From: Spirochaetia bacterium
Lineage (GTDB): Bacteria > Spirochaetota > Spirochaetia > UBA9216
NCBI GenBank assembly: GCA_963677925.2
Contig: CAXXYH010000004.1
Location: forward strand, 2,432,001-2,496,000
Direction of reading: 5' to 3'
Length of the DNA stretch: 64,000 nt
The position numbers and the translations under genes were made by a program. Shown here one piece after another: positions 13,670 through 60,980 of this stretch. Within the stretch, counting starts at the first letter, position 1. Each line of letters starts with the position of its first letter. A model generated the notes under the pieces. It saw only the letters and a list, made by a program, of their open reading frames with translations, was not told the DNA's origin and made no database searches.

Positions 13670-13688
13670 TTGCCAGGAGGAAAAGATT

Positions 13689-15634: not shown

Positions 15635-15661
15635 TTAAGACATTTTTTCGTATTCCGATAT
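15635..15661 (+). promoter_or_regulatory. Possible sigma28 (FliA) promoter of flgF-flgG-flgJ
   Basis: TTAA-N15-TCCGATAT versus consensus TAAA-N15-GCCGATAA, upstream of a flagellar operon. Confidence 0.4.
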
Positions 15662-15690
15662 TTACTATAGAAGTATTTGCGGAGGAAAAA

Positions 15691-44509: not shown

Positions 44510-45496
44510 TTGAATATGAAGTTTATTCTCCGGAAACTGTTGGCATCTTTGCTAACGCTTCTGGTCATTACATTCGTAAATTTTGTAATTTTCCGAATGG
44601 CGCCTGGAGATCCTGTCAGGCTGATGTTTAAGGACCCCAGAGTTTCAATTGAAGATATCGAGGCTATGAAAGTAAAATTTGGACTCGATAAACCTATTCC
44701 CGGTCAGTATGTTGACTATATGAAAAACCTGCTTAAAGGAGATATGGGAATCTCATTTTGGCAGAAGAAACCGGTATCAGAGGTTATTGCTGCACGAATA
44801 CCGCAGACTCTGATGCTGATTGGGACGGCCTTGTTTCTTGCCGTTGTGATAGGGACTATTTTCGGTGCAATTGCCGGATGGAAAGGAGGTTCGAGGACAG
44901 ACTCGACGATTGTCGGGGTCTCGATGACTCTGTATTCGGTTCCAAGTTTCGCATTCGGTATTCTTCTGATGCTGGGGCTTGCATATCATCTTGCGATTTT
45001 CCCGCTGGGCGGAATTGAAACCCCTGCCTCCGGCTACACTGGAATACGGCGGTGGCTTGATATTGCCTGGCATATGGTTCTTCCATCCTTCTCGATTGTT
45101 TTATGGTATATAGGACAGTATATAATTATCACAAGATCATCCATGAAGGATGTTCTAAGTCAGCCCTTTATTATGACTGCAAGGTCGAAGGGCGTTCGTG
45201 AAAAAGTTATCCTCAGCAAGCATGCCCTGAGAAATGCCTTCCTTCCGCTCATTACAATCACCGGTGTAAATATAGCCTTTATGACCGGCGGTATTATTGA
45301 GGCAGAAACTGTATTTTCATGGCCTGGTCTTGGAAGACTGCTTTATGACGCGGTTATGAAACGAGATTATCCGCTTCTTCAGGGATGTTTTATGGTTTTC
45401 GCTATTGCAGTAGTTGTACTGAACTTTGCAGTCGATTTACTTTACAGCAGAGTTGATCCACGCGTTAGAATCGGAGGTATGAGCGATGAACATTAA
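44510..45496 (+). CDS. dppB: Peptide/nickel ABC transporter permease DppB/OppB
   Basis: APGDP, GLDKPIPGQY, GDMGISF, TARSKG...HALRNA, ETVFSWPGLG, RDYPLLQG. Confidence 0.88.
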   Translation: MNMKFILRKLLASLLTLLVITFVNFVIFRMAPGDPVRLMFKDPRVSIEDIEAMKVKFGLDKPIPGQYVDYMKNLLKGDMGISFWQKKPVSEVIAARIPQTLMLIGTALFLAVVIGTIFGAIAGWKGGSRTDSTIVGVSMTLYSVPSFAFGILLMLGLAYHLAIFPLGGIETPASGYTGIRRWLDIAWHMVLPSFSIVLWYIGQYIIITRSSMKDVLSQPFIMTARSKGVREKVILSKHALRNAFLPLITITGVNIAFMTGGIIEAETVFSWPGLGRLLYDAVMKRDYPLLQGCFMVFAIAVVVLNFAVDLLYSRVDPRVRIGGMSDEH

Positions 45497-46367
45497 AAGT
45501 TATAAACTAGAGAAGACCAGAAACTTTGTTCAAATGTTCTTTTCTCATCGAATGGGACTCTGGGGATTTATAATTTTCAGTCTGTTTATTGTAATGGCGC
45601 TTTTCGCTCCCTTTCTTGGAACTGTTGATCCCCACCAGTCGGGTGATGTTGATAAAATCCTGCTCAGTCCCAATGCTAATGCATGGCTTGGAACGGATGA
45701 TCTTGCACGGGATGTCTGGAGTCAGGTTATTTACGGCAGCCGGATATCACTTACAATCGGTTTTATAACAGCAATTATTACAGTTATAACAGGAACCATA
45801 GTAGGTATGGTTGCAGGCTTCAAAGGCGGTGTTGTAGATGAAATCCTGATGAGGGTTGTAGACTTCTTTATGATGCTTCCCCAGCTCCCGCTGATGATTG
45901 TACTTGCAGCGGTTATGGGTGCCAGTATATGGAATATTGTAATAGTAATCAGTATTGTCAGCTGGCCGTCAACTGCAAGACTTGTACGCTCGCAGGTGCT
46001 TTCTCTTAAGGAACGGCCCTTTGTAGAAGCTGCAAGATGTCTAGGCGCAGGTGATGCGACCATGATGCTTCGTGAAATACTGCCTAATGTTATCCCGGTA
46101 ATGTTTGCGCAGGCCGTTCTGATGGTTACAGAAACAATCTATGCCGAAGCAGTTTTAAGCTTTCTCGGGCTCGGAGATCCGACAAAGATAAGCTGGGGAA
46201 CAATGCTGCATTTCTGTTTTGAGTCAGGAGCCATGGCAAGAGCGGTCTGGTGGGTCCTTCCCCCGATTGCATGTATTGTAGGCTTGATAATCAGTTTCTC
46301 CTTTCTGGGAACTTCAGTTACAGATATTCTGACACCCGGTTATAAAGAGAAAATGGGATATTCGTGA
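45486..46367 (+). CDS. dppC: Peptide/nickel ABC transporter permease DppC/OppC
   Basis: LGTDDLARDV, YGSRISL, FVEAARCLGA, ILPN, LSFLGLG. Confidence 0.9.
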   Translation: MNIKSYKLEKTRNFVQMFFSHRMGLWGFIIFSLFIVMALFAPFLGTVDPHQSGDVDKILLSPNANAWLGTDDLARDVWSQVIYGSRISLTIGFITAIITVITGTIVGMVAGFKGGVVDEILMRVVDFFMMLPQLPLMIVLAAVMGASIWNIVIVISIVSWPSTARLVRSQVLSLKERPFVEAARCLGAGDATMMLREILPNVIPVMFAQAVLMVTETIYAEAVLSFLGLGDPTKISWGTMLHFCFESGAMARAVWWVLPPIACIVGLIISFSFLGTSVTDILTPGYKEKMGYS

Positions 46368-46376
46368 GGTACCTGA

Positions 46377-47336
46377 ATGAACTTACTTGAAGTAAAAGAC
46401 CTTTGTGTTGACTATGAAATGAAGAAAGGCACTGCAAGGGCTGTAAATAATGTTAATTTTGAATTGAAGAAGGGTGAAACCTTCGGATTAATTGGAGAAT
46501 CGGGCTGTGGTAAAACAACAACAGCTATGGCTTTGATGGGCTTTGTTTCTCCTCCCGGAAGGATAAGTCAGGGTTCGGTTGAGTTTAAAGGCGAGGATAT
46601 AAGAACTTATTCAAAGGAAAAGATGCGTCAGCTGCGCGGTAATTCTATTTCGATAGTAAGACAGGAAGCACAGAACGCACTAAATCCTGTTTTAACTATC
46701 GGTGATCAGATTGCAGAGGTTCTGAAGGAGCATGGTGTTACAAACCAGTCTGAGGTTGATGCGAGGGTGAAAAAGCAGCTTGAAATGGTCGGTATCACAC
46801 CGGACCGTAAAAACAGCTATCCCTTCGAGTTCAGCGGCGGTATGAGGCAGAGAGTAATGATCGCTCTTGCAGCTATATGTGAGCCTGATCTGATGATCCT
46901 TGATGAGCCTATCACCGGTTTGGATGTTATTGTTCAGAGACAGCTTTTAACTCTTCTTACAGATCTTCGAAAAAAGATGAATCTGACAGCACTGCTTATA
47001 GCACATGACCTTGCAGTCATTGCTGAGATGTGTGACAGGGTTGCTGTTATGTACGGCGGATATATAGTTGAGAATGCTGAAGTAGCAAAACTGTATGAGG
47101 AGCCGAAGCATCCTTACAGCAAGGCTTTGATTGAGTCCTATCCGAAAATTACCGGTGAGAAGAAGGAGCTTAAGAGTATTCCGGGAGCGCCTCCAAAGCT
47201 GCTTGAGAAACCGGACGGCTGTCTCTTTGCGGACAGATGTCCTCAGGCTATGCCTGTCTGCCGTAAAACTGTACCTGAATTGATTGATGTAGACGGCAGC
47301 CAGGTTAGATGTCATCTGTACGGAGGGAATAAATGA
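46377..47336 (+). CDS. dppD: Peptide/nickel ABC ATP-binding protein DppD/OppD
   Basis: GESGCGKT, FSGGMRQR, HPYS, C-terminal Cys cluster GCLFADRC...C...VRCH. Confidence 0.9.
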   Translation: MNLLEVKDLCVDYEMKKGTARAVNNVNFELKKGETFGLIGESGCGKTTTAMALMGFVSPPGRISQGSVEFKGEDIRTYSKEKMRQLRGNSISIVRQEAQNALNPVLTIGDQIAEVLKEHGVTNQSEVDARVKKQLEMVGITPDRKNSYPFEFSGGMRQRVMIALAAICEPDLMILDEPITGLDVIVQRQLLTLLTDLRKKMNLTALLIAHDLAVIAEMCDRVAVMYGGYIVENAEVAKLYEEPKHPYSKALIESYPKITGEKKELKSIPGAPPKLLEKPDGCLFADRCPQAMPVCRKTVPELIDVDGSQVRCHLYGGNK

Positions 47337-48340
47337 GCGACGCTGTGAATATACTTGAGGTCAGAGACCTGAAAAAATATTTCCCGCTGAAAAAAGAGAA
47401 TATTTTCTCGAAAAAGCCTCGAAAGATACTCAAGGCGGTAGACGGGCTTAACTTTTCGGTAGGAAAGGGTGAAATACTTGGATTTGTTGGAGAGTCCGGC
47501 TGCGGTAAATCAACAATGAGCCGTTCAATTATTCAGCTAATACAGCCGACATCCGGTAATGTAATTCATGATGGAGTTGATCTTACAACACTGTCAAAGC
47601 CTGAAATGAGAGCCCGGAGAAAAAGTATACAGATGATCTTTCAGGATCCTTTCGGCTCCCTTAATCCGAGAAGATCTGTATCTGAAACTCTCCGGATGGT
47701 TTTGAAAATTCATGATGTATGTAAGACTCAGGAAGAAGAGGATCAGCTGATATATAATGTTCTTGAAGAAGTAGGGCTTACTCCGGTTGAAACCTTCTGG
47801 GACAAATTTCCGGCAATGATGAGCGGAGGTCAGCTTCAGCGTGTGAGTATGGCAAGGGTTCTGATGCTCAGACCTGATTTTATAATAGCAGATGAGCCTG
47901 TATCCATGCTTGATGTATCAGTACGTATCGGTGTTCTGGATCTTCTTTTACGGATGAGAGATAAATATAAGATATCTTTCATTTACATTACACATGACCT
48001 TGCTACTGCCAGATATGTCTGCGACAGAATTGCAATAATGTACCTTGGTAGAATTGTTGAGATGGGCCCGACAGAAGAGATTCTGCATAATCCAAAGCAT
48101 CCATATACAAAAGCTTTGATTGCGGCTGTTCCTGAACCGGATCCTACCCGTGAAAAGCTTGAACTTCCTATCAAGGAATGGACCAAGGATTCCTATATTG
48201 AGAATGATAATGCCTGTCTGTTCTTTCCCAGATGTCCGGAAGGCCGTGAAGTCTGCCGTCATAAAAAGCCGGAGATGATTGATATTGTCAAAGGGCATAC
48301 AGCTGCCTGTCATGCAGTGCATAAAGACAGCGAGTACTGA
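47333..48340 (+). CDS. dppF: Peptide/nickel ABC ATP-binding protein DppF/OppF
   Basis: KAVDG, GESGCGKST, IFQDPFGSLNPR, MSGGQLQR, HPYTKAL, C-terminal Cys cluster. Confidence 0.9.
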   Translation: MSDAVNILEVRDLKKYFPLKKENIFSKKPRKILKAVDGLNFSVGKGEILGFVGESGCGKSTMSRSIIQLIQPTSGNVIHDGVDLTTLSKPEMRARRKSIQMIFQDPFGSLNPRRSVSETLRMVLKIHDVCKTQEEEDQLIYNVLEEVGLTPVETFWDKFPAMMSGGQLQRVSMARVLMLRPDFIIADEPVSMLDVSVRIGVLDLLLRMRDKYKISFIYITHDLATARYVCDRIAIMYLGRIVEMGPTEEILHNPKHPYTKALIAAVPEPDPTREKLELPIKEWTKDSYIENDNACLFFPRCPEGREVCRHKKPEMIDIVKGHTAACHAVHKDSEY

Positions 48341-48360
48341 TTCTGATATAATAAACCAAT

Positions 48361-48388
48361 GGCCGGGATCGCCCGGCTTTTTTATTTT
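48361..48388 (+). terminator. Rho-independent terminator after the dpp operon
   Basis: GCCGGG-ATCG-CCCGGC followed by TTTTTTATTTT. Confidence 0.75.
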
Positions 48389-48417
48389 ATGATAAATATC
48401 AGGGATGCAATTTTACT

Positions 48418-49632
48418 ATGAGAAAGCCGTCTTCTTTGTTTGAACGGGACAGAATAGAAGAACTTAAGATAATTACAAATTTTCAACCTCTCTATTCGGT
48501 AACGGAAAAGAAATATATAGGCGTTGAAGCTCTTTCCCGTGCCGATTACAGGGGTGATTTTCTGTCTGCAGGTCAGCTGTTTTCAATTCCATCAACCGAA
48601 AATGAGAAACTGTCCCTGAATATGAAATGCATTTATTCTGCAATAAACACTTTTAAAAAGCAGAAGTACTCTGAGGAGTACACAATGTTTCTTAACTTTG
48701 ATTCATCCATCCTGGACAGCGGTTTGATTGAGGAATCTCATTTTGTTAATGTTGATCGGATTGGTGTTAATCCGAACCAGATTGTTATTGAACTTATAGA
48801 ATCCAATGTTGCTGATTTCGATCTTCTGATTAAATTTGTAAACTTCTACCGTGAAAACGGTTTTTTGATTGCGCTCGATGATGTCGGTGCAGGGTATTCG
48901 GGTCTGGACAGAATCGTGAAGATTAAACCGGATATTATTAAAATTGACCGTTCTCTGGTTAATGGTGTTTCAAAGGAATATCATAAAAGGGAAGTCTGCA
49001 GAGCTCTGGTTGAGCTTACACATAATATCGGAGCGCTTTCTCTTTCTGAAGGAGTGGAAACTCTTGAGGATGCAATAGAATGTCAGCAGCTGGGAACTGA
49101 TCTAATACAGGGATATTTCTTTTCAAAGCCACTTTCTCGGCTTCCTTCCCCATATGAAAGCAGTGAACAGGGTGATCAGCTGGTTACCGCTTGGAGAACT
49201 AAGGTTGAGTTCAAACAGAAAATATTGACACATAATATAAAGAGCATAAAATCCAGAGCTTCTGAGATTACGGAAAGCCTGGAAAGTAAGGATCCGGCAG
49301 AAGCAGGCTGTATTTTACTGGCGTATCTTGATTGTTCATCTGATATTGAATGCATGTATATTCTGAATGAGAAGGGTATTCAGGTATCTGAAACTTTTAT
49401 TAACCCTGAAGTGAGCAGAAAAACACATTCCCTTTTTCAGCCGGCCAGGTTGGGGACGGACCATTCACTGAAGCACTATTTTCAGAAGCGGCTCAGGAAT
49501 CAGAAGCATTATATATCAGACCCTTACATATCCAGAGCAACAGGAAATTTCTGCAGAACTATATCATGCAGCTGGCATGATGGTTCAGCCGCAGAATATT
49601 ATCTGTGCCTCGATATTTCCCATTCTTATTAA
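48418..49632 (+). CDS. EAL-domain protein with C-terminal YkuI-like sensor domain
   Basis: FQPLY, VEALSR, IALDDVGAGYS, IKIDRS, EGVE, QGYFFSKP; C-terminal MYILNEKGIQVS...ISDPYISRATG. Confidence 0.88.
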   Translation: MRKPSSLFERDRIEELKIITNFQPLYSVTEKKYIGVEALSRADYRGDFLSAGQLFSIPSTENEKLSLNMKCIYSAINTFKKQKYSEEYTMFLNFDSSILDSGLIEESHFVNVDRIGVNPNQIVIELIESNVADFDLLIKFVNFYRENGFLIALDDVGAGYSGLDRIVKIKPDIIKIDRSLVNGVSKEYHKREVCRALVELTHNIGALSLSEGVETLEDAIECQQLGTDLIQGYFFSKPLSRLPSPYESSEQGDQLVTAWRTKVEFKQKILTHNIKSIKSRASEITESLESKDPAEAGCILLAYLDCSSDIECMYILNEKGIQVSETFINPEVSRKTHSLFQPARLGTDHSLKHYFQKRLRNQKHYISDPYISRATGNFCRTISCSWHDGSAAEYYLCLDISHSY

Positions 49633-49686
49633 TAATTCAGATATTTTACTCATAACCCGGGTGCGGGAGCTGCACTTTCAGCGGAG

Positions 49687-49833
49687 CTATAAGCTCTGCA
49701 TAAGAAAGAGCAGATCGTTATATTGTTTTTCAAGCATTAGCAAACGTTTGCTCTCCACGTTCTCTGAGAAGAAGATTTTAAGTCTTAAGTTTATTATGGC
49801 CTTTTTTAAGCAGGTTCTCTGTTCTATAGTCAT
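49687..49833 (-). CDS. Putative 48-aa small protein
   Basis: ATG..TAG open frame MTIEQRTCLKKAIINLRLKIFFSENVESKRLLMLEKQYNDLLFLMQSL with AGGA RBS; below the ORF-track cutoff. Confidence 0.45.
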   Translation of the reverse strand: MTIEQRTCLKKAIINLRLKIFFSENVESKRLLMLEKQYNDLLFLMQSL

Positions 49834-50025
49834 ATCATTTCCTGATGACTAATCAAGCCATCCAGAGAATATACATTCTTTTTATCAAAAATCTATAAAA
49901 ACAGTGTAAATTGGATGTAAATTCAGTAAAATCTGCTTTTAAACCTTTAAAAGCCTCCATTTATAACAGTATTTATCCGGGACAATCAGAATTGGATTAT
50001 GGAATATCATTTATTGACATCAGGA

Positions 50026-50054
50026 TTGACAGCAGAAAAAATGACACTTACCAT
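50026..50054 (+). promoter_or_regulatory. sigma70 promoter of abfD
   Basis: TTGACA-N17-TACCAT; predicted TSS ~50061. Confidence 0.7.
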
Positions 50055-50197
50055 CTGTCTATAACAGCACAACCCTTCCGTTTCTATTGAAACAGTGCTG
50101 TTGCCATGGATGAATAAGAGCAATTGGGAGATATGCAGTTGTATATCTCCCATACCTTTCAACCAGAATAAATTACCTTAAATACGGAGGAAATTAG

Positions 50198-51775
50198 ATG
50201 GGTATTGGAACATATGAACAGTACAAAGAACGACTTCTCAAGATGAAGCCAAATGTATATTTACATGGTGAGAAAGTAGACAGATCAGGCGATTGGATTG
50301 ACGGCGGAACATACGTTATGAAGCAGACTTATGACTGTGCTAACGATCCTGATTACGAAGATCTCTGTACTGCGACTTCACACCTTACAGGTGAAAAAAT
50401 CAGCCGATGGACTCACATTCACAGAACCCAGGACGACCTTTTCAAAAAGCAGCTCATGACCAGGGTTATGTGTCACAGAGTAGGCGGATGTACACAGAGA
50501 TGTATGGGGACAGATGCACTCAACGCTCTTGCTGTTGTAACATATGATATGGATCAGGCTTGCGGAACCAAGTACCACGAGAGATTCAACAAGTACCTTG
50601 AGTACTCACAGAAGAACGACCTTGTTGCTAACTGTGCTCAGACTGATGTTAAGGGATCAAGAAATCCAAAGTACAAGAGAGCTCATATGCAGCCGGATCC
50701 GGATCAGTTTGTACATGTTGTTGAGACAAATGTAGACGGTATCGGTCTTGACGGAAAGCCCTGTAAGGGTATGATCGTTCGCGGTGCAAAGATTTGTAAC
50801 TCAAACGCTCCTTACGTTGATGAGATTATTGTAACTCCCACAAAGTTTATGGGATCAGGTGATGAAGCATATGCCTGTGCATTTGCTCTTCCTGCAGACT
50901 GGCCCGGCGTTAAGCTGATGGCTCTTCCAGGAAAGCATCATAAGAGAAAGCATATCGAAGCTCCTTTTGCACTCGTAGGTGATGTTGAATCACTAACAAT
51001 CTTTGATGACACTTTCGTACCTGAAGACAGAATCTTCATGAACGGTCTTGATCAGCCGGATGTTCTTCAGTATGCAGGTTACCTTGCACTGATGTTTGCT
51101 CACTTCCACAGACATTCATACACAGGTTGTAAGACTGCTGTATCGGAAGTTATTGCAGCACAGGCGGCACTTGTAGCTGATGTTAACGATATTGCAAAAG
51201 AGCACCACGTAAGAGAGAAGATTTCTGACATCGTCGGTACTGCTGAGCTCGTTTTTGCAGCGGGTCAGGCTGCAGCCCTCAGAGCTGTTCAGTTTCCTAA
51301 CGGTTCATGGGTTCCGGATGAGGTTCTTACAAACGCAGGTAGAAAGCTTGCTGGTCAGAAGATCTACCACGAGTATGAAACACTTGCAGACCTTACAGGC
51401 GGTATTTCTGCATCACTTCCTACAGAAGAATCTTTCTACGATCCTGAAACTGCAGAACTCTGTAACAAGTACATCATGAGAAATCCTGCCTACACAGCAG
51501 AAGAGACTCACAGGGTTATGAGAATGATGGAAAACAAGCTTTGTGATGCATTCGAAGGCGCACAGGCTGTAGCCGGTGTTCACGGCGGCGGTTCACCACT
51601 TATGGAAACTATCGTTATGATGGCAAGATATGACCTTGAAGCTCTTAAAGATATTGCAAAATACCTTGCAGGTTTCGAAGGCTACGAAAAGTGTCCGAGA
51701 TACGAAAGAGCAACTGCTACACCAAGAGCTATGCTTGACAGATTCAGAAAAACTGAAATGGGAAAAAAGGCTTAA
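50198..51775 (+). CDS. abfD: 4-hydroxybutyryl-CoA dehydratase/vinylacetyl-CoA isomerase (HpaB/AbfD family)
   Basis: [4Fe-4S] ligand motifs GGCTQRCMGTDA and HRHSYTGCK, AQTDVKG, IVRGAK, HGGGSP. Confidence 0.8.
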   Translation: MGIGTYEQYKERLLKMKPNVYLHGEKVDRSGDWIDGGTYVMKQTYDCANDPDYEDLCTATSHLTGEKISRWTHIHRTQDDLFKKQLMTRVMCHRVGGCTQRCMGTDALNALAVVTYDMDQACGTKYHERFNKYLEYSQKNDLVANCAQTDVKGSRNPKYKRAHMQPDPDQFVHVVETNVDGIGLDGKPCKGMIVRGAKICNSNAPYVDEIIVTPTKFMGSGDEAYACAFALPADWPGVKLMALPGKHHKRKHIEAPFALVGDVESLTIFDDTFVPEDRIFMNGLDQPDVLQYAGYLALMFAHFHRHSYTGCKTAVSEVIAAQAALVADVNDIAKEHHVREKISDIVGTAELVFAAGQAAALRAVQFPNGSWVPDEVLTNAGRKLAGQKIYHEYETLADLTGGISASLPTEESFYDPETAELCNKYIMRNPAYTAEETHRVMRMMENKLCDAFEGAQAVAGVHGGGSPLMETIVMMARYDLEALKDIAKYLAGFEGYEKCPRYERATATPRAMLDRFRKTEMGKKA

Positions 51776-51815
51776 TTATAAAGACTTGTTCCTTTTTCAC
51801 AGAGATGTGAATATT

Positions 51816-51851
51816 AAAAAGATCTTCCGAGCAGGAAGATCTTTTTTTTTT
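51816..51851 (+). terminator. Rho-independent terminator after abfD
   Basis: AAAAAGATCTTCC-GAGCA-GGAAGATCTTTTTTTTT. Confidence 0.85.
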
Positions 51852-51896
51852 GAAATTATGAAGCAGAAATGATAAGCTTAAATATTAGAGGTATGT

Positions 51897-52790
51897 ATGA
51901 AAGACAGAGTTTTGATTCTTAAACTTGCTGCCCTTATAACAGCTGTTATTTTGATTGGAAGCTGCGGACTAGCCGTTGGTTCAGTATCACTGTATATAAC
52001 AGATTCGCCTGTTGAGGATGAAGATATTGAAAGTGTATTTATAACAGTGAATTCGATAGAATATCATATAGAAGAACCTGATGAGTGGATAGAAGTTACT
52101 GATTTTGAAGGCCCGGTTACCTATGATCTTTTATCACTTACAAACGGTGTAAGTGAAATGATGGGTGAATTTACATTTCCCTCAGGCCGGATAACTCAGC
52201 TCAGGTTTCATCTTGATGCGCCTGCTACCGGAGACAGTCCTCCTTCCAATCCCGGCTGTTATGTGAAACTTGCAGGAGACAGTGCTGAATATCCGTTGTT
52301 TGTACCAAGCGGAAGTACTTCCGGGTTCAAGGCTACCGGAGCCTTTGATGTTCCGCTGTATTCTTCTGTGACTGTTACCGCAGATTTTGATGTCAGAAAA
52401 TCGGTAAAGAATACCGGTGATACCGAAAACCCTCTATATAAACTGAGCCCCACTATCAGGCTTGTTGTTGATAATGAAGCAGGTAAAATAGAGGGCGACG
52501 TCACCTACGGCGGCAGCAGCAGTCTTGTTGTATTCAGTTATAAAGACGGTGAATATTCTTCTGACGAATTGAGTTCTGATCCGTTATTCAGTTCGGCAGT
52601 GAGCAGTGCTTCAGTATCTCCAGGAGCTGATGGTAGTGACTTTATTCTTGCGTATCTTTCTGCAGGAATATACGATCTTGTTTTTGCTGAATTTGATTCG
52701 GACGGGAATTTTATTGTTTCGAGTGTGAAAATTAAGGAAGATGTTACGGTCACAGAGGGAGAAACCTCTGAAGTTGGTTTTGGTTACTGA
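51897..52790 (+). CDS. DUF4382-like lipoprotein
   Basis: Lipobox LIGSC, LYITDSP, YDLLSL, VPSG, ADFDVRKS. Confidence 0.75.
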   Translation: MKDRVLILKLAALITAVILIGSCGLAVGSVSLYITDSPVEDEDIESVFITVNSIEYHIEEPDEWIEVTDFEGPVTYDLLSLTNGVSEMMGEFTFPSGRITQLRFHLDAPATGDSPPSNPGCYVKLAGDSAEYPLFVPSGSTSGFKATGAFDVPLYSSVTVTADFDVRKSVKNTGDTENPLYKLSPTIRLVVDNEAGKIEGDVTYGGSSSLVVFSYKDGEYSSDELSSDPLFSSAVSSASVSPGADGSDFILAYLSAGIYDLVFAEFDSDGNFIVSSVKIKEDVTVTEGETSEVGFGY

Positions 52791-52806: not shown

Positions 52807-53514
52807 TTATTCATCATATATTGAGACTATACCGTTAATGGTTTTTTTAAGGGATTCCTGAAAAGTGTTAACTGCGCCTTCGGAATCCTTTTCTTTTATA
52901 TTTTTCACCAGCTCAATGGTGTTTTTGTAAAGCTGCTCATTCCCATGCAGCGTAAAGTATTTCTCCCACAGCATTGTAGAGAGCTCCTTAAAGGAATAGA
53001 AAATAACCGGCAGCATTGTGTTGCCCGAAAGAATGCAGAGTTCCTGGTGGAATATGAATATAGTTTCGGCAGAGCTTTCAGGTGTCTTTGATTTTCCAAA
53101 ATTGTCTGCAAGCTTAGTCAATACCTCTATATCTGATTCTGATACAGCAGGCACCAGGAGTTCAAGTGCAAGTGTCTCAAAGACCAGTCTGATTTCAAGA
53201 AGTGACTTCATTTCAGTTTTTTTCAGATTGCCGCCGTTGTACCGCAGAATGGCCATCAGAGTTTCAACAGTTCCCCGCCTGTGGTAGTCAGCTACAAATG
53301 CTCCGATTCTCGGCTTTATTTCAACAAAGCCTATGCCTGCCAGTTCTGTAAGTCCTGAATTTACCACAGCACGGCTCACACCCATTTTTTCCGCCAGTTC
53401 TCTCTCAGGGGGAAGTCTGTCACCAATACTTAGTTTTCCTGAAATTATCATATTCTCAATTTCTCTTACGAAAAGATCCTTTAATGAGGGCGAGGACAGT
53501 CTTGAAAACTCCAT
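52807..53514 (-). CDS. FadR/GntR family transcriptional regulator
   Basis: GDRLPPERELAEKMGVSRAVV wHTH; FCD motifs LLEIRLVFE and FHQELCILSGN; ATG 53514 with AAGGAG RBS. Confidence 0.92.
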   Translation of the reverse strand: MEFSRLSSPSLKDLFVREIENMIISGKLSIGDRLPPERELAEKMGVSRAVVNSGLTELAGIGFVEIKPRIGAFVADYHRRGTVETLMAILRYNGGNLKKTEMKSLLEIRLVFETLALELLVPAVSESDIEVLTKLADNFGKSKTPESSAETIFIFHQELCILSGNTMLPVIFYSFKELSTMLWEKYFTLHGNEQLYKNTIELVKNIKEKDSEGAVNTFQESLKKTINGIVSIYDE

Positions 53515-53531
53515 AAAAAAGCTCCTTGTAC

Positions 53532-53549
53532 TGGTCATACCAAAGACCA
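53532..53549. promoter_or_regulatory. Probable FadR-type operator
   Basis: TGGT-CAT-ACCA palindrome plus an extra ACCA half-site, in the divergent region next to the regulator start. Confidence 0.55.
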
Positions 53550-53624
53550 AAAAATAATTATATTATGAAAGAATCAATAAATCAATATATTTAAACAAAA
53601 TAGAACGCAATAGATAAATATTTA

Positions 53625-53653
53625 TTGACAATACCAGAAAGTGGAATTAGACT
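53625..53653 (+). promoter_or_regulatory. sigma70 promoter of the Ni permease-hypB operon
   Basis: TTGACA-N17-TAGACT; overlapped by an imperfect inverted repeat TTGACA.TACCAG...CTGGA.CTGTCAA. Confidence 0.65.
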
Positions 53654-53679
53654 GGATCTGTCAAATAAGGAGTCGAAAA

Positions 53680-54354
53680 ATGAATATTACCTTCTCAATG
53701 CTGCTGGCTGCAGCATTCACAGCGGGAGTACTGCATACTCTGACAGGTCCCGATCATTACGTTCCGTTTATTGTTTTTTCAAGTTCAGGAAACTGGTCTC
53801 TTAAGAAAACGCTCGGCATGACCCTGATCTGCGGACTGGGGCACATCCTTTCAGCAGTCCTCGTTGCATATGGAGCACTGAAAATCAGTTCAATCATGCT
53901 AAGCCTTGAAACGATTGAAGCAATCCGGGGCGGTTTTGCAGCCTGGGCATTGACTGTCTTCGGGTTTACCTATGCGCTTTGGGGACTTAGAAAGATTATA
54001 TCAGGAAGAAAAGCTGTGAAGGAACATATTGAGAATGTCGGACAGAACAGCAGTCTCAGTAAACGAAAGAATGTAGTTAGCTGGACGCTTTTTCTAATCT
54101 TTGTCTTCGGGCCTTGTGAACCTCTAATTCCCTTCATCCTTTTTCCGGAATCTTCAGTATCAGGCAATCAGATTATTGCAGTAACTTCAGTTTTCGGTGC
54201 AGCAACCCTGCTAACAATGCTTACAGTAGTAACATTTGCAACAGCAGGTTTAAAAAGATTTCCGCTGCATAATTTTTTCAGCCGCTTCGGACATACCCTT
54301 GCCGGCAGTATTGTAGGCTGCTGCGGACTTGCTATGACCTTTCTTGGACTTTAG
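53680..54354 (+). CDS. Nickel/cobalt permease (UreH/SodT/NiCoT-like)
   Basis: HTLTGPDHY (H-x4-DH type Ni motif), CGLGH, GPCEP; ~6 TM; precedes hypB. Confidence 0.75.
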   Translation: MNITFSMLLAAAFTAGVLHTLTGPDHYVPFIVFSSSGNWSLKKTLGMTLICGLGHILSAVLVAYGALKISSIMLSLETIEAIRGGFAAWALTVFGFTYALWGLRKIISGRKAVKEHIENVGQNSSLSKRKNVVSWTLFLIFVFGPCEPLIPFILFPESSVSGNQIIAVTSVFGAATLLTMLTVVTFATAGLKRFPLHNFFSRFGHTLAGSIVGCCGLAMTFLGL

Positions 54355-54375
54355 TAAGGCTTAAGGAGTACGACA

Positions 54376-55047
54376 ATGGATAAATACAAGGTTATAGAAA
54401 TTAAAAAAAATGTTTTTGAAAGCAACGATAATGAGGCTGCAAAATTGAGAGCTGGACTGAGAAAAGACGGGGTTTTCCTTCTTAACCTGATGTCATCTCC
54501 CGGATCCGGAAAGACCACAACCGTAATGCAGACTATCGGCAAACTCAGGGACAGTCTGAACATCCGTGTTCTTGAAGCAGATCTTGATTCTGATGTTGAT
54601 GCTGCAACTGTTCACAATTCAGGGGTCAAGGTTCTTCAGCTTCATTCAGGCGGAATGTGTCATTTGAATGCAGATATGGTCAGACAGGGGCTGACCGAAC
54701 TGGGCACAGAGGATACAGACCTTATTATCCTGGAGAATATTGGAAATCTGATATGTACTGCAGAGTTTGATACAGGAGCCGCAAAAAACGCAATGATACT
54801 CAGTGTGCCGGAAGGTGATGACAAGCCGCTGAAATATCCATCGATGTTCAAAATGACTGATGTTCTTATAGTTAACAAGATTGATGCAATGGAGTTCTTT
54901 GATTTTAATCTTGAGCGGTTGGAAGGATATGTAAGGAAACTGAATCCGGATGTGAAGATATTTCCCGTATCCGCAAAGACGGGTGAAGGCATTGATGCCT
55001 GGACTCAGTGGCTAAAAAATGAAGTCGAACTTTGGAGGAAATCCTGA
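54376..55047 (+). CDS. hypB: Nickel incorporation GTPase HypB
   Basis: NLMSSPGSGKTT, GGMCHL, ENIGNLIC, SVPEGDDKPLKYP, NKID, VSAKTGEG. Confidence 0.95.
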   Translation: MDKYKVIEIKKNVFESNDNEAAKLRAGLRKDGVFLLNLMSSPGSGKTTTVMQTIGKLRDSLNIRVLEADLDSDVDAATVHNSGVKVLQLHSGGMCHLNADMVRQGLTELGTEDTDLIILENIGNLICTAEFDTGAAKNAMILSVPEGDDKPLKYPSMFKMTDVLIVNKIDAMEFFDFNLERLEGYVRKLNPDVKIFPVSAKTGEGIDAWTQWLKNEVELWRKS

Positions 55048-57736
55048 TGGACTACAGAGAAAAGATTCTCGATCTTGCAAATCATATAAACAGGACAAAG
55101 AAGGGCTCTTCAAGGGCAATTAAACCAGGTGATCCTGAATACATGATTCTGGAACCTGTTGTAACCGATGCAATGGCTGAGGCTGCTATGTGCCTTGAAT
55201 TGCGGAAACCTAAAAGTGCAGTCGAGGTTGCCTTGCTCTGCGGCAGGGATTCTGCTGATACTTCAGCACTGCTCTGGGAACTTGCAATGGCCGGCGTCTG
55301 TTTTGTAAATGAAATAGACGGCACCGACAAGTACTGGCTTGAAACCTGGATTCCGGGTGTCATGGAAATGATGACCAACAATAAAGAGAATGTCGCCAGA
55401 TTTCCGCAGATAGCCGAAGCTTTCGAGGCATACGGCCGGGTACGCGGACCTCAGTCTGCAGGAAATTTTCCGGTTGGTGTAGGTCTAATGCGGGTTATTC
55501 CAATTGAACGCTCTATAGAAGGCGAGACCCGCAAGGCCTCCTATGAGGAAGTTTCGAAATACCTGAATGAAAACGACCGCTTTTCTGTTTCCGACTGTGC
55601 CTGCCGTACAGCCCGTGAGGCAATGGGTGAAGGCTGCGGCCATCTGAAAGAAGACATGTGCATACAGATGGGACATGCGCGGAGTACTACATTCGAACCG
55701 GGCGCGGCCGTGAGATAGATCGTAACGAAGCCTTCGAAATCATCAAAAGGGCTGAAGATAATGGACTGATGCACCAGATACCCAATACCGACGGTTCAGG
55801 TAACACGCATGCAATATGCAACTGCTGCGGCTGTTCCTGTCTGTCTTTAAGAACAGCAGAGATGTTTATCAACAACGATATGGTCCGTTCAAATTATGTA
55901 TCTGATGTAGATATTGATAAATGTGTGGCCTGCGGAGAATGCGTTGAGGTTTGTCCGGTAAATGCTCTTCAGCTTGGTCATAAACTCTGTTCGGATACAC
56001 CCCAGAATATCCCGGTACGTGAAACCCCCGAGGTCACAGAATGGGGACCTGAAAAGTGGAATCCTGATTATCGAACAAACAGGCAGGTCGTTCTTGAATC
56101 AGGAACCAGTCCATGCAAGGCTGAATGTCCTGCACATATAGGTATTCAGGGTTATGTAAAACTTGCTTCACAGGGAAAGTATACAGAGGCATTAGAGCTT
56201 ATTAAAACCGAGAATCCCTTTCCCGCGATCTGCGGCCGTATCTGTCCGCGAAAATGCGAATCTGCATGTACCAGGGGCGATATAGATGACCCAATTGCGA
56301 TTGATGACATCAAGAAATTTATTGCCGAGAAAGACCTTCATGCAGAAACCAGATTTATTCCCAGGAAACGTCATGACTACGGTAAAAAAATTGCTGTAAT
56401 AGGCTCAGGCCCGGCAGGGCTTTCCTGTGCTTACTACCTTGCTGTAGACGGTTACAAAGTTACTGTTTTTGAAAAAAACAGCAGCCCCGGCGGAATGCTC
56501 ACAACGGGCATTCCTTCATTCAGGCTTGAAAAGGATGTCGTCAGTGCAGAAATTGACATTATCAAAGAACTCGGCGTAGAAATCCGCTGCGGAGTGGAGG
56601 TTGGAAAAGATGTTTCAATTGACGGACTTCGAAAAGACGGGTTTCAAGCCTTCTATCTTGCAATTGGTGCACAGTCGGGAAGAGCCCTTGGAATTGAAGG
56701 TGAGGATGCAGAAGGGGTCATTACAGGAGTTGATTTTCTGCTGAATGTAAGCTGCGGTGAACTGAATGATTTCACAGGGAGAACAGTAGTTATCGGCGGA
56801 GGCAACGTAGCAATTGATGTAGCCCGGACGGCTGTAAGATCCGGGGCTGATAAAACCGAAATGTTCTGCCTGGAAGGCAGGGAACAGATGCCGGCGCTTG
56901 AAGAAGAAGTTGATGAGGCGCTTTCTGAAGGAATTTATATTAACAACTCCTGGGGACCGAAAAGAATAATCACCGAAAAGGGAAAAGTGAAGGCTGTTGA
57001 GTTTCGAAAGTGCCTATCGGTATTTAATGCAGAGGGAAGGTTTTCACCGGTATACGATGAATCGGATACGCTTACTGTTGAAGCCGACAATGTTCTGATT
57101 TCTGTAGGACAGGCAATTGACTGGGGGAATCTGCTTGATGGTACCGGCGTAAAACTGAACCCCAACAACACCGTGATTGCCGATCCGGAAACATGGCAGA
57201 CCGGTGAGGCTGATATCTTTGCCGGAGGCGATGCTGTAACAGGACCAAAATTTGCCATTGACGCAATTGCTCTGGGCAAGGAGGGTGCTATATCCATCCA
57301 CCGCTACGTACAGCCGGGGCAGAGTCTTGTTTACGGACGAACTAAACGCAACTATAAACCGCTTGATAAGGAAAACCTCATCCTTGCCGGATTCGACAGA
57401 ATGCCGAGGCAGAGCACATCTCATGTGAGCGGAGATGATTCGAAAAAAACCTTCAGCGATCTTCGGGAAACCTTTACCGAAGAACAGGTCATCAAAGAAA
57501 CTGAACGCTGTCTTGGATGCGGAGCAGTGGTTGTTGATAAATTCATGTGCGTCGGCTGTGGAGCCTGTACCCTGAAGTGCCGTTTTGATGCAATAAAACT
57601 TGAAAGAAAATACGACGCTGAAGGCCTGGTACTTACCGATATAAGACCCGCTGTTATGAAGCAGATGGTGAAGCGGAAGCTGAAAATAGCGGTTAACAAA
57701 CCTATCAAGGCTGTCAAGTCAGCTCTGGGCGGGTAA
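55047..57736 (+). pseudogene. ~896-aa Fe-S/FAD pyridine nucleotide-disulfide oxidoreductase (Cys-rich N-domain, ferredoxin, GltD-like core, ferredoxin), split by an apparent 1-nt deletion at ~55678 (real lesion or sequencing error)
   Basis: Frame 1 reads ...CIQMGHA, frame 2 continues AEYYIRTGRGREI; DNA CAT GC GCG GAG lacks one base; CVACGECVEVCP, CGRICPRKCESAC, GSGPAG, GGGNVA, CVGCGACTLKC. Confidence 0.8.
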
Positions 57737-57740
57737 TGCT

Positions 57741-58082
57741 TTGCACGAACTTGGTGTTGTAATTGAAGTGATTAAAACGGTTGAAGAAGTAGCCGCGGAG
57801 AGCGGAGTAACCAGTATTGAGTCGCTTGTTCTTCAGATAGGAGAACTTTCCTCAATAGTTCCCCGTTATGTGCAGGACTGCTATCCTGCAGCCGCCGACG
57901 GAACACTTCTTGAAAATACAAGGCTTGAAATTGAGATCCTGCCCGGAAACGGGCTCTGCCGCGGCTGCGGTAAGGTATTCAACCTTGCAGCGGAGAAAAG
58001 TATTTGTCCATCCTGTTCGGCTTCGGATTTTGAAATCCTGGGCGGACGGGAATTTATGATCAAAGAAATTGTCGCCTGTTAG
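57741..58082 (+). CDS. hypA: Nickel metallochaperone HypA
   Basis: MHE N-terminus (TTG start), IGELS, CRGC and CPSC zinc site, GREF. Confidence 0.93.
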   Translation: MHELGVVIEVIKTVEEVAAESGVTSIESLVLQIGELSSIVPRYVQDCYPAAADGTLLENTRLEIEILPGNGLCRGCGKVFNLAAEKSICPSCSASDFEILGGREFMIKEIVAC

Positions 58083-58116
58083 GCCGGCATGAAAATCTAT
58101 TTATATGGAGTAATAG

Positions 58117-59118
58117 ATGTTTACTTTTAATACTGCCGCCGGCGCCAATATTGCGTCGGCCTGGGGAATGTGGATAGTTGTGTTCGCGGCCCTGTTTATT
58201 CTTAATGAACTTGCACGCAGGTGGAAGGCTGCTGGATTCACAGCCTTTGTAGTTCTGCCTGCAGTACTTACTGTTCTGTGGTTTACAGTAATGAGTGATA
58301 CCACTTATACCGACTGGTTTCACCTGGCAAAGGTGTATTCATCAACTGCCGGCTGTATTGGTTTCTGGCTTATACGTCACCTTAAAGGAACAAACAAACT
58401 TACCGGTAAGCAGTGGAGACTTTCGGACAAGAAACTCGCTCTGATATTTCCTCCGCTGATCCTTGCTATCAATATTCTTGAAGCATGTGTTAGGGATTTT
58501 CAGATTGGTCTTCAGTACACAGGCGGCGGAATAACTGCCGATGAGGGAGTTTTTGTTCTTGGCGGTATATGGAACTATATGAACGGAATTGCAGGACTTC
58601 TTAATATTATAGCTATCACCGGATGGTTTGGTATTGTAATCAGGCGGCAGACAGAATGTGATAAGAGCCGCGACATGCTCTGGCCTGATATGCTCTGGTT
58701 CTGGATCATTGCCTATGATATCTGGAACTTCACATACACATACAACTGTCTGCCTCATCATGCATGGTACTGCGGTTTTGCCCTGCTGCTGGCGCCTACA
58801 CTATGTGCTTTCACAGTAGGCAAGGGGGCATGGCTTCAGCACCGTGCTCAGACTCTGGCACTCTGGTGCATGTTTGCACAGACCTTTCCGGCATTCCAGG
58901 ATGAGGGGATGTTTGCTGTTACCTCTACCTACAAGCCGGGACTGTATATGTTCTGGGGAGTACTTTCACTTGCAGTTAATATTGCAGTAATCGTGTATAT
59001 GCTTATCCGGGTTAAGAAAACCGGACGCAATCCGTATAAAGGAGAACTTTACACTGATAACCCGAAGTATCTTGAAGTTAAGGCTCTTGCAGAGGAACCT
59101 GCCGGAGCGGCTGTCTAA
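58117..59118 (+). CDS. Polytopic membrane protein, DUF5692-like
   Basis: ~9 TM; WFHLAKVYS, NILEA, WPDMLWFWIIAYDIWNFTYTYNC, WLQHRAQTL. Confidence 0.7.
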   Translation: MFTFNTAAGANIASAWGMWIVVFAALFILNELARRWKAAGFTAFVVLPAVLTVLWFTVMSDTTYTDWFHLAKVYSSTAGCIGFWLIRHLKGTNKLTGKQWRLSDKKLALIFPPLILAINILEACVRDFQIGLQYTGGGITADEGVFVLGGIWNYMNGIAGLLNIIAITGWFGIVIRRQTECDKSRDMLWPDMLWFWIIAYDIWNFTYTYNCLPHHAWYCGFALLLAPTLCAFTVGKGAWLQHRAQTLALWCMFAQTFPAFQDEGMFAVTSTYKPGLYMFWGVLSLAVNIAVIVYMLIRVKKTGRNPYKGELYTDNPKYLEVKALAEEPAGAAV

Positions 59119-59150
59119 CTTTAGGGTAAACTAAACGTGTTCGGCTAATC

Positions 59151-59183
59151 ACCGCGTCTTCGGGCGCGGTTTTTTTATTTTTT
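59151..59183 (+). terminator. Rho-independent terminator closing the hyp operon
   Basis: ACCGCGTC-TTCG-GGCGCGGT followed by T runs. Confidence 0.8.
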
Positions 59184-59305
59184 ATAAGTAATTAGTAAAT
59201 AAATTGCTTATATATAGAAATAATGTTATATTGAATACAGAAAGTTGAAGCAAACCAAAGTTCCGCATCTCTGAACCAATTTTCGAAGCTAAATCGGAGG
59301 TGTTT

Positions 59306-60166
59306 ATGAAATTAAATGGAAAAGTAATTGTTATCACCGGAGCAGGCGGAGGAATAGGACGTCAGCTTGTTGTTCAGGCTCTTGATGAAGGAGCATCAGT
59401 AGCGGCAGTGGATATAAATCCTGATGCCCTTGAGGCAACACAGCTTGCAGCCGGAAAACATGCCGACAGGCTGTCTCTTCACACTGCCAATATTACAGAC
59501 AGACACGCTGTCTGCGGTCTTCCTGAGGCTGTAAAAGCAGCCCATGGTAAAATTGATGCCATTATAAACAATGCAGGTATTATTCAGCCTTTTATTCCCT
59601 TTGCTGAACTTGACTATGAAACTATTCAAAGGGTTATGAATATAAATATCTACGGCATGATGTATATGACCCGTGCTTTTCTTCCGTATATCGGTGAATC
59701 CGCTGAGGGGTATATTGCAAACGTTTCAAGTATGGGCGGATTTCTGCCTGTTCCCGGTCAGGCTCTCTACGGGGCTTCAAAGGCTGCAGTAAAGCTGCTT
59801 ACAGAAGCCCTCAGATCAGAGCTGATAAATACAAATATACATGTTTCTGTAATTATGCCGGGCGGTGTTGCCACTGATATTACAAAGAATTCAGGTGTAG
59901 AAGCAAGTTCAAATGCTACCGAAGAAAACAGCTCAAACTACAAGATGACTACGCCCGAGGAAGCTGCGGCAATAATATTATCAGGAATAAAAAAGAATAA
60001 ACCGCGAATCCTTGTCGGTAAAGACGCAAAATTTATGGATTTTCTCAGCCGTCTGGCTCCTGTAAAGGCCAGCCAGTACATAACCAAAATGATGGCATCA
60101 CTTGTGGAACAACGGGGCGGAAATGAGGGACTGAAGACTGCAGGCTGTCTTGGGAAAGATAAGTAA
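59306..60166 (+). CDS. Short-chain dehydrogenase/reductase (SDR)
   Basis: TGAGGGIG, NNAGI, NVSS, YGASK, PGGVAT. Confidence 0.92.
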   Translation: MKLNGKVIVITGAGGGIGRQLVVQALDEGASVAAVDINPDALEATQLAAGKHADRLSLHTANITDRHAVCGLPEAVKAAHGKIDAIINNAGIIQPFIPFAELDYETIQRVMNINIYGMMYMTRAFLPYIGESAEGYIANVSSMGGFLPVPGQALYGASKAAVKLLTEALRSELINTNIHVSVIMPGGVATDITKNSGVEASSNATEENSSNYKMTTPEEAAAIILSGIKKNKPRILVGKDAKFMDFLSRLAPVKASQYITKMMASLVEQRGGNEGLKTAGCLGKDK

Positions 60167-60269
60167 TGGCGTAATTGCAATTTAATCAAAATCTAACAAT
60201 CTTAATCCTATAATAGCATTAACTTAATATATGAACTGCTTAAAGCAGGCTGATTATAGGAGTGAATAT

Positions 60270-60980
60270 TTGGATGAGGATAAGATTAAAAGCAATACAC
60301 TGACTGCCGAGGCTCTGGGAACATTTTTTCTTGTACTGATTGGCTGCGGCTCAATCGTTGTAAATAATGCAGCGGACGGGGTAATTGGCCATGCGGGTAT
60401 TTCTGCGGTTTTTGGAATGGTTGTTATGGCCATGATCTACTCAGTGGGCAATATTTCAGGAGCTCATCTGAATCCTGCTGTGACTATAGGCTTTCTTTTT
60501 GCTAAAAGAATCGGGATAAAGCAGGCTGTGTTCTACATAATATTTCAGATTATCGGGGCTGTTGCAGCTTCTCTGCTTTTGAAGTTTCTTTTTCCCCAGA
60601 GTCAGGGGCTTGGTGAGACCATTCCGGCGATAAATGTGATTAGGGCATTAACAATAGAAGTTGTGCTTACCTTCCTGCTTATGTTTGTAATTCTTAACGT
60701 CTCTACCGGTCATATGGAGAAAGGGATCATGGCCGGTGTAGCGATAGGTGCAACCGTCTGTATTGCTGCAATAGTCGGTGGCCCTCTCACCGGCGCTTCA
60801 ATGAATCCCGCACGCTCGCTTGGTCCCGGACTTATAAGCGGAAACCTTGCTCATATCTGGATCTACATAGCCGGTCCTATCATCGGTGCTGTTCTTGCCT
60901 CTCCGCTCTGCCGAATACTTCAGGGGCCCGAATGCTGTTATGTGGATTGTGATGTAAATAAATCGGTCGATGACCGATAA
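60270..60980 (+). CDS. MIP-family aquaporin (NIP-like)
   Basis: ISGAHLNPAVT and GASMNPARSLGP; TTG start after AGGAG (alternative ATG 60231). Confidence 0.92.
   Translation: MDEDKIKSNTLTAEALGTFFLVLIGCGSIVVNNAADGVIGHAGISAVFGMVVMAMIYSVGNISGAHLNPAVTIGFLFAKRIGIKQAVFYIIFQIIGAVAASLLLKFLFPQSQGLGETIPAINVIRALTIEVVLTFLLMFVILNVSTGHMEKGIMAGVAIGATVCIAAIVGGPLTGASMNPARSLGPGLISGNLAHIWIYIAGPIIGAVLASPLCRILQGPECCYVDCDVNKSVDDR

Follow-up and report, generated by a model that had tools for sequence, protein, structure and literature searches.

Only a few kinds of nickel enzyme are known, and to our knowledge the sole client of the nickel chaperones HypA and HypB besides hydrogenase is the urease of Helicobacter. 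A 64,000-nucleotide stretch of the genome of a Spirochaetia bacterium (hereafter the window) raises the question of what these two proteins serve where neither hydrogenase nor urease is found: their genes stand on either side of a gene for a large Fe-S flavoenzyme. We favour the reading, which we consider reasonably probable, that the locus is an operon for a member of the IsrA clade 9 family of Fe-S flavoenzymes equipped with nickel-delivery machinery of its own. Because the chaperone genes bracket the enzyme gene in a genome without hydrogenase or urease, the enzyme is itself probably a nickel enzyme.

The system is encoded by a tight unit on the plus strand (53680-59118) of overlapping or nearly touching genes. 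In order, these specify a small polytopic, permease-like membrane protein (open reading frame (ORF) 53641-54354, with a likely ATG start at 53680, 7 nt behind AAGGAG), the G3E nickel GTPase HypB (54376-55047; NCBIfam TIGR00073, 239.2 bits against a cut-off of 121.2), an IsrA-like Fe-S flavoenzyme of about 897 aa (55047-57736; Pfam Fer4_20, Pyr_redox_2 and Fer4), the nickel metallochaperone HypA (57741-58082; PF01155, 106.6 bits, cut-off 28.9) and a polytopic DUF5692 membrane protein (58117-59118; PF18948, 392.7 bits, cut-off 27). The hypB stop overlaps the flavoenzyme ATG in the sequence TGATG, and hypA starts with TTG 4 nt past the flavoenzyme TAA, its product beginning MHEL. The unit ends at a terminator-like hairpin (59151-59170; 8-bp stem with 6 G-C pairs, 4-nt loop) that runs into the T-rich tail TTTTTTATTT (59151-59180 overall). 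At its other end lies a divergent control region (53557-53653) with back-to-back promoter-like sites on the plus (53625-53653) and minus (53585-53557) strands, each with 10/12 consensus matches; promoter-like sites are not enriched in the region (14 against a shuffle mean of 13.3), so the sole argument for the site at 53625-53653 is its intergenic position. Beyond it, on the minus strand, is the gene for a GntR regulator with an FCD ligand domain (52807-53550), in which the winged helix (PF00392, 62.1 bits) and the FCD domain (PF07729, 32.8 bits) both score above cut-off.

ORFs and Pfam/NCBIfam scores place each of the genes in the six-gene region as the first-pass annotation of the window had drawn it, and its TGATG overlap and 4-nt flavoenzyme-hypA gap can be read directly in the sequence. 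Its FadR-type divergent regulator is borne out by the two domains named above, and its promoter at 53625 and terminator at 59151 were both located, as a promoter-like site and as a hairpin with T-run. Its flavoenzyme of about 900 aa has the domains and the span described, except that in the window it is divided between two ORFs by one missing base. The TTG at 57741 is probably one of many non-ATG hypA starts: in a number of related loci (L017, L022-L024, L026, L036, L038 and L042, among others) the longest hypA ORF reads M..LHELG, with the conserved HE behind a Leu or Val codon.

The genome that holds the window (5.04 Mb in 4 contigs, 99.63% complete) has no match for the [NiFe]-hydrogenase large subunit (PF00374), HypC, HypD, urease alpha or LarC (PF01969), and only sub-threshold domain matches for HypF. 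Its lone Prismane protein was considered as a carbon monoxide dehydrogenase (CODH) and rejected, being a hydroxylamine reductase (867 bits); because it is the only Prismane protein, the genome is without CODH. The HypA of the window is the only one above cut-off. The earlier statement that no hydrogenase, hypCDEF, ure, coo or lar gene accompanies the operon can thus be extended from the window to the genome, HypE not having been searched for, with the exception of genes for LarA-like (Lar_N) proteins that lie elsewhere: three strong (G000:C4:739370-739969, C3:464818-465414 and C4:865822-866418; L005-L007) and two weak. These five proteins, in a genome with no LarC, lend something to the idea that HypA, HypB and the permease feed other clients, whether LarA-like proteins without LarC or a Ni-glyoxalase, and that adjacency to the flavoenzyme reflects co-regulation only. 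Lar_N proteins outside the operon do imply that some nickel demand lies outside it. We nevertheless regard this explanation as improbable, given how closely the chaperone genes follow the enzyme gene from genome to genome.

Eighty related loci were collected from reference genomes of Clostridia, Tissierellia, Sporomusa, Halanaerobiales, Spirochaetota, delta-type proteobacteria and Chloroflexota, their enzymes being 69-81% identical to the query. By tblastn with the window proteins, hypB is present at 73 of these loci, within 300 nt upstream on the same strand in 70, and hypA at 71, within 300 nt downstream in 64 and within 1200 nt in 70. Both chaperone genes occur at 69 loci and neither at five, with HypB only at four and HypA only at two (one at a contig edge); in five loci where hypA lies about 1 kb downstream, the DUF5692 gene stands between it and the enzyme gene. 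Independent ORF clustering recovered HypB at 71 loci and HypA at 66, the median gaps to the enzyme gene being 26 and 39 nt, respectively. The gene-neighbourhood check proposed in the first-pass annotation therefore returns a cluster conserved across phyla, and the 69-81% identity that this subgroup keeps over such distances points to one conserved function of its own. A bracket with gaps of tens of bases, repeated in 69 of 80 loci across phyla, argues against co-regulation with unrelated clients. Two loci carry two flavoenzyme copies on the same strand with hypA between them (L054:10001-12700 and 13617-16313; L073:10001-12691 and 13362-16070).

The arrangement is also found where hydrogenase is not. 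Among the 50 genomes behind loci L010-L059, 49 were scored; the NiFe large subunit and HypD occur together in the same 28, and 21 have neither. Urease alpha was matched in five of the 49, strongly in three, and in only one of the 21. Both chaperone genes are kept at the enzyme in 19 of these 21 hydrogenase-free genomes, the other two being Treponema genomes with hypB at the enzyme and a single hypA elsewhere. A third Treponema genome, again without the NiFe large subunit, likewise has hypB at the enzyme and hypA elsewhere, and this unlinking of hypA in three genomes is the second point that favours other clients. Four of the five chaperone-less loci (L013, L032, L068 and L076) belong to genomes with a NiFe large subunit, together with HypD in the case of L013 and L032 and with several HypA copies in that of L068 and L076; the fifth, L080, was checked for the NiFe large subunit alone.

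A profile of about 300 genomes drawn evenly from the class Clostridia gave a similar picture. The N-terminal-domain profile of the enzyme matched 19 of these genomes at E <= 1e-20, with an open frame of at least 878 aa in 17, while HypA was matched in 50 of 300 genomes and the NiFe large subunit in 37 of 301. Each of the 17 full-length enzymes shares its contig with a HypA no more than about 3 kb away, and 11 of the 17 genomes lack the NiFe large subunit. Across the Clostridia genomes without that subunit, all 11 HypA matches at E <= 1e-22 adjoin the enzyme, and no canonical-scoring HypA (0 of 11) lies anywhere else. Where hydrogenase is present, a second, different HypA is usually added rather than one being shared: five of the six enzyme-carrying genomes with a NiFe large subunit have a second HypA, which is beside a hydrogenase gene in four and is not in the fifth (G147). 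The adjacency of enzyme and HypA holds in three tiers of divergence (E ~1e-200, ~1e-160 and ~1e-80). Profiling in genomes without hydrogenase or urease, another of the checks suggested at the outset, thus finds the cluster there: 21 of 49 genomes have neither NiFe large subunit nor HypD, all but one of them being without urease alpha as well, and 11 of 17 enzyme-carrying Clostridia genomes have no NiFe large subunit.

Two further groups of genomes emerged from the Clostridia sample. Eleven genomes contain only weak HypA-like matches (E 5e-7 to 1e-18) that start at profile position 4-8. These genomes have neither the NiFe large subunit nor the flavoenzyme, the weak family stands apart on a long branch of the HypA tree described below, and the three members fetched (G234:C100:26386-26697, G261:C23:131386-131700 and G118:C4:71111-71422; L126-L128) do not start with MHE. 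A NiFe large-subunit match with no HypA at E <= 1e-6 was found in G070, G078, G096, G126, G129, G142, G185, G244 and G318.

The HypA sequences themselves carry the same division. A tree was built from 51 rows. The enzyme-linked ones number 26 and comprise the window HypA, 10 taken from the related loci and 15 of the 17 found in the Clostridia sample. A further 22 are not enzyme-linked, 21 of them having a NiFe large-subunit match no more than about 1.7 kb away, and three are weak HypA-like proteins. Two rows of the sample, some six of hydrogenase type and eight weak ones were omitted. All 26 enzyme-linked HypAs, with that of the window among them, fall on one side of a branch that has a support of 92/82 (not starred) and is present in 90% of bootstrap trees, and 19 hydrogenase-linked HypAs form a starred clade. 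The N-termini differ accordingly, reading MHE[LIMV]G in the enzyme-linked proteins and mostly MHEY[AP][IV]T in the hydrogenase-linked ones. By sequence, then, the enzyme-linked HypAs make up a distinct lineage that groups apart from the hydrogenase-linked HypAs, and the HypA phylogeny proposed in the first-pass annotation supports its reading.

The enzyme between the chaperones has a described relative. The putative isoprene reductase IsrA from Acetobacterium wieringae ISORED-2, an oxidoreductase of 901 aa, belongs to 'clade 9' (Kronen et al. 2023, mSystems, PMC10134865). According to that paper, isoprene induces IsrA together with two HypAs, HypB and a 350-aa ferredoxin, strongly so for IsrA, HypA and HypB, in a host whose genome is without [NiFe]-hydrogenase, the isr operon has the order isrA-hypA-hypB-ferredoxin-hypA, and a neighbourhood network of 988 clade 9 homologs contains HypA at 0.73, HypB at 0.56, DUF5692 at 0.40 and TetR at 0.21 (PMC10134865). 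The same source proposes an N-terminal Cys6 site with two CxC motifs, 'cluster V', as a nickel site and IsrA as a nickel client (PMC10134865). A 2026 preprint adds that isoprene raised hypA about 373-fold and hypB about 585-fold in a Pelotomaculum enrichment (bioRxiv 10.64898/2026.02.25.708027). The first-pass annotation had presented the locus as a candidate new system, a description that has to be given up, since the family, its HypA/HypB/DUF5692 neighbourhood and the nickel-client idea are all in PMC10134865.

Judged by the published description of its domain order, cysteine motifs and neighbourhood, the window enzyme fits IsrA clade 9. Taken together, the two window ORFs can be aligned over their whole length with homologs of 890-905 aa that are 70-81% identical, the two CxC motifs of cluster V are present in SDCAC and ICNCC, and hypA and hypB are directly adjacent. 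The predicted chain begins with a winged helix and a Cys-rich domain, followed by a ferredoxin motif, a GltD/NfnB-like 2x[4Fe-4S]-FAD-NAD(P)H module and a C-terminal ferredoxin motif, such that the C-terminal two thirds consist of the GltD/NfnB-type module (Fer4_20, Pyr_redox_2) with ferredoxin motifs on both sides. No Pfam or NCBIfam model matched the N-terminal ~290 residues (N-terminal ORF). Nine cysteines in this part are invariant in 28 sequences (C184, C186, C197, C205, C258, C260, C261, C263 and C265), and they sit in SDCAC, GCGH, MCIQ and ICNCCGCSC. The gene is single-copy in its own genome, and its homologs number in the thousands, the best 120 being mostly 890-905 aa long and 65-81% identical (the window's own ORF aside). 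At E <= 0.001 a profile of the N-terminal domain alone reaches 3186 cluster representatives, of which 291 also pass E <= 1e-30. Besides fused forms of about 900 aa, these include many stand-alone forms of 355-370 aa (P0184-P0270), which resemble the 350-aa ferredoxin of the isr operon; for that ferredoxin, PMC10134865 reports no association with HypA/HypB.

Structure prediction was informative for the first part of the N-terminal region. The AlphaFold model has a pLDDT of 70.9, with residues 1-135 confidently predicted as a winged helix. Foldseek found no match to the model in the PDB at E <= 0.001, and the best VIA-align match (3r0a_B, Z 7.1, rmsd 6.6, 109 aligned), like the other winged-helix regulators recovered, covers residues 4-141 only. 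A predicted complex between HypA and the first 345 residues of the flavoenzyme scored 0.00, in a run without controls that has no bearing either way.

In a rival reading, the HypA and HypB proteins would deliver a metal other than nickel or assemble an unusual all-iron cluster of double-cubane or P-cluster-like type in the N-terminal domain, and the enzyme would be free of nickel. HypB belongs to the G3E GTPase family and also matches, weakly, UreG and the zinc chaperone ZigA (NCBIfam), and the N-terminal model recovers no Ni-site fold. The Cys6 site of cluster V, moreover, is likened in the published account to the acetyl-CoA synthase (ACS) A-cluster and equally to P-type or double-cubane clusters (PMC10134865). 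Set against this, M1-H2-E3 and the four CxxC...CxxC cysteines are invariant in 36 of 36 enzyme-linked HypAs, and His2 and Glu3 are the residues that the same source names as Ni ligands of HypA (PMC10134865). The HypB translation contains GSGKTT, NKID and SAK motifs as well as the GGMCH...NLIC cysteines, so the CH...C pattern is kept in a protein that scores 239 against an equivalog cut-off of 121 bits, and in this lineage a UreH-like permease gene heads the operon. We consider a nickel-free enzyme unlikely and continue to favour nickel as the metal delivered.

As deposited, the flavoenzyme gene consists of two ORFs, 55032-55718 (228 aa) and 55658-57736 (692 aa), because one base is missing at GGACATGC|GCGGAG, near 55677/55678, relative to L010, the closest relative. 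Such a split could mark the operon as a decaying relic, with a true pseudogene at its centre and chaperones on the way to being lost. The L010 enzyme is 95-99% identical to both window halves and is intact, and in the window all flanking genes are intact as well. The junction reads CIQMGHAAEYYIRTG in 16 of 16 aligned full-length homologs, and inserting a C behind 55677 restores the reading GHAAEYY that all 16 keep. That C is present in a near-identical Logan contig of run X1 (49,256 nt, depth ~7.8) that shows no other difference over the gene; run X1 may be the source sample of the window assembly. The frame is likewise restored in a relative from run X2, by an A that follows 55678. The deletion site contains no homopolymer, runs X2 and X3 hold relatives or fragments only, and no RNA run is on record among the listed runs that hold the stretch. 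The break is probably an error of the assembly consensus and not the sign of a pseudogene, which means that the flavoenzyme is probably intact in the organism, and we rate a decaying relic as very unlikely.

The remaining members of the operon hint at how it is supplied and controlled. A GntR homolog lies beside the cluster in 24 of the 80 related loci and is divergent in every one, and in the independent ORF clustering none of 23 GntR ORFs was on the flavoenzyme strand; the GntR/FCD protein is likely a repressor or sensor of the operon. Its FadR_C match (19.6 bits) is under the cut-off. The nearest Atlas clusters of the permease are DsbD_2-like, one of them being named 'putative Nickel transporter UreH' (score 0.94), and its translation contains the motif HTLTGPDH, which we take to resemble the HupE/UreJ signature. 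DsbD_2 presumably shares a Pfam clan with the NicO and HupE_UreJ families, neither of which matched the permease in the Pfam scan. The protein is a probable UreH/HupE-like Ni2+ permease. DUF5692 homologs occur at 52 of the 80 loci. The structure model of the window protein (pLDDT 85.3) has no Foldseek match at E <= 0.001, and its best VIA-align match is the Ste2 G-protein-coupled receptor (Z 8.9, rmsd 4.9, 192 aligned), followed by other seven-helix bundles at Z 6-7. Because these values are below the informative level for helical bundles, we left its function unassigned; it could possibly serve in substrate uptake or as a membrane anchor.

Taken together, these parts suggest a pathway in which Ni2+ would enter through the UreH-like permease and HypB, with GTP, would hand it to HypA, which would insert it at the Cys-rich N-terminal site formed by the nine invariant cysteines. 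Electrons would pass from NAD(P)H to FAD, on to the two GltD-type [4Fe-4S] clusters and the ferredoxin-type clusters, and finally to the Ni/Fe-S site, where an unsaturated organic substrate might be reduced by analogy with the conversion of isoprene to methylbutene. This substrate would probably be sensed by the GntR/FCD regulator and handled by DUF5692. We give about even odds to a broader proposal. In it, the flavoenzyme and its 69-81%-identical orthologs in Clostridia, Tissierellia, Negativicutes, Spirochaetota, Chloroflexota and delta-type proteobacteria would form a new nickel enzyme class, that of NAD(P)H-driven reductases with a Ni-Fe-S centre installed by HypA/HypB in the N-terminal Cys-rich domain. 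This centre would hydrogenate an unactivated C=C bond in a metabolite that is common among anaerobes and is not isoprene, perhaps an isoprenoid acid or an unsaturated lipid to which the FadR-like regulator responds, and HypA/HypB would have a second, hydrogenase-independent lineage dedicated to the enzyme.

Several observations weigh against an enzyme with nickel machinery of its own. In the literature searched, in which few subscription journals were covered, no member of the family was found to have been purified or analysed for metals. The window HypA scores 74.3 bits against the NCBIfam equivalog for hydrogenase HypA (TIGR00100), below its cut-off of 88.1, and the LarA-like proteins of the genome could also need nickel. 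The Cys-rich part of the enzyme is poorly predicted (pLDDT 46-60 over residues 140-170 and <50 from 277), and this low-confidence model matched no solved Ni site. Chaperone genes are absent nearby in five of the 80 loci and an adjacent hypA is missing in three Treponema loci, so physical linkage is not obligatory. The permease owes its family assignment to a sub-threshold DsbD_2 score (24.2 against a cut-off of 24.9 bits) and has a homolog at just one of the 80 loci, L010; the Ni-permease-like protein that the first-pass annotation included in the unit does lead the operon, and it is specific to this lineage. The deposited enzyme gene is frameshifted, its intactness being read from a single X1 contig of depth ~7.8 that possibly derives from the same data. 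Finally, the argument for nickel in the enzyme is one of gene linkage. The claim that HypA and HypB serve the flavoenzyme is supported by conservation, by the hydrogenase-free genomes and by the HypA tree, with nickel as the presumed metal.

Genes further out do not appear to belong to the system. The short-chain dehydrogenase/reductase (SDR) encoded downstream of the terminator (59300-60166) had been suggested as part of the pathway, a suggestion we reject: no SDR match above 38% identity was found in any locus but L010, and in this closest relative the SDR gene is displaced by about 5 kb. The two genes that are neighbours in the window, those for DUF5692 and the SDR, are separated there by extra DNA at L010:14062-18996. 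After the SDR gene come a MIP-family channel (60231-60980) and, from 61055, a pyruvate:ferredoxin oxidoreductase (1493 bits) that runs off the window end. On the other side, positions 44510-52790 encode an Opp/Nik-type ABC transporter (two permeases and two ATPases), an EAL phosphodiesterase and HpaB-like and DUF4382 proteins. The transporter (44510-48340) was considered as a component and left unassigned: its best match, 'nickel ABC transporter permease Opp2B', is below the cut-off (278 against 350 bits), and the EAL, HpaB-like and DUF4382 genes intervene before the operon. No binding-protein gene was seen beside it. At 16 of the 80 loci, hypB is closely preceded on its own strand by genes for an HTH_28 regulator and an Amino_oxidase (CrtI-like) FAD protein (for example, L028:6647-7735 and L028:7719-8981). 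It is possible that this Amino_oxidase/CrtI-like neighbour hints at a lipid- or isoprenoid-like substrate; an oleate hydratase, reported as a neighbour of Acetobacterium homologs, would also fit a lipid-like one.

If the proposal holds, a widespread and strongly conserved flavoenzyme with its own HypA/HypB lineage would add a class of nickel enzyme and a chemistry of unactivated-alkene reduction. As the nickel-client idea was put forward in 2023, the value of this locus is that of supporting evidence and not of discovery. Its genome, nearly complete, has hypA and hypB and no other known client machinery, which makes it a clean case in nature, and the locus adds a putative operon-encoded nickel permease and a member of the family's most conserved subgroup, that with DUF5692 and an FCD regulator. 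With the Clostridia profile and the HypA tree, the neighbourhood statistics already in print become a sharper claim that can be put to the test.

Compared with known systems, the locus resembles CODH with CooC and ACS with AcsF in concept, these too combining a Cys-ligated Ni/Fe-S site with an operon-encoded NTPase chaperone, whereas no relation in sequence or fold was found, the chaperones here are HypA and HypB, and the window genome is without CODH. The NfnB, GltD and YgfK flavoproteins share the electron-input module: enzyme residues ~350-760 match Fer4_20 and Pyr_redox_2, and PRK12771 (473 bits), gltA, YgfK and AegA also match, all under their curated cut-offs. Unlike these proteins, the window enzyme has the module fused to ~340 N-terminal residues and a C-terminal ferredoxin motif, and the GltD-type models stop short of the part encoded by the N-terminal ORF.

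The chaperones invite comparison with those of hydrogenase and of H. pylori, in which a HypA/HypB client other than hydrogenase has its precedent (titles cited in PMC10134865). The window HypA has the MHE N-terminus and the CxxC...CxxC zinc site and the window HypB the G3E motifs and CH...C cysteines, the latter protein being without an N-terminal CxxCGC site; the HypB of the IsrA host is called 'type 1', like H. pylori HypB, in PMC10134865. In contrast to those systems, the window genome is without hydrogenase, hypCDF and urease, and its HypA, which scores below the TIGR00100 cut-off, sits in a lineage apart that has an N-terminal signature of its own.

The closest counterpart remains IsrA. 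Both enzymes comprise ~900 aa, with an unannotated N-terminal domain of ~270 aa that bears two CxC motifs, then ferredoxin motifs, a DPD-domain-II 2x[4Fe-4S] module, an FAD/NAD(P)H module and a C-terminal ferredoxin motif, and both have hypA and hypB adjacent, DUF5692 as a frequent neighbour, strict-anaerobe carriers of the same phyla and a host without [NiFe]-hydrogenase. The window operon differs in its order, hypB-enzyme-hypA-DUF5692, in having a GntR/FCD regulator and a permease, and in being without the second HypA and the 350-aa ferredoxin paralog, a difference in make-up from the isr operon that suggests a substrate other than isoprene.

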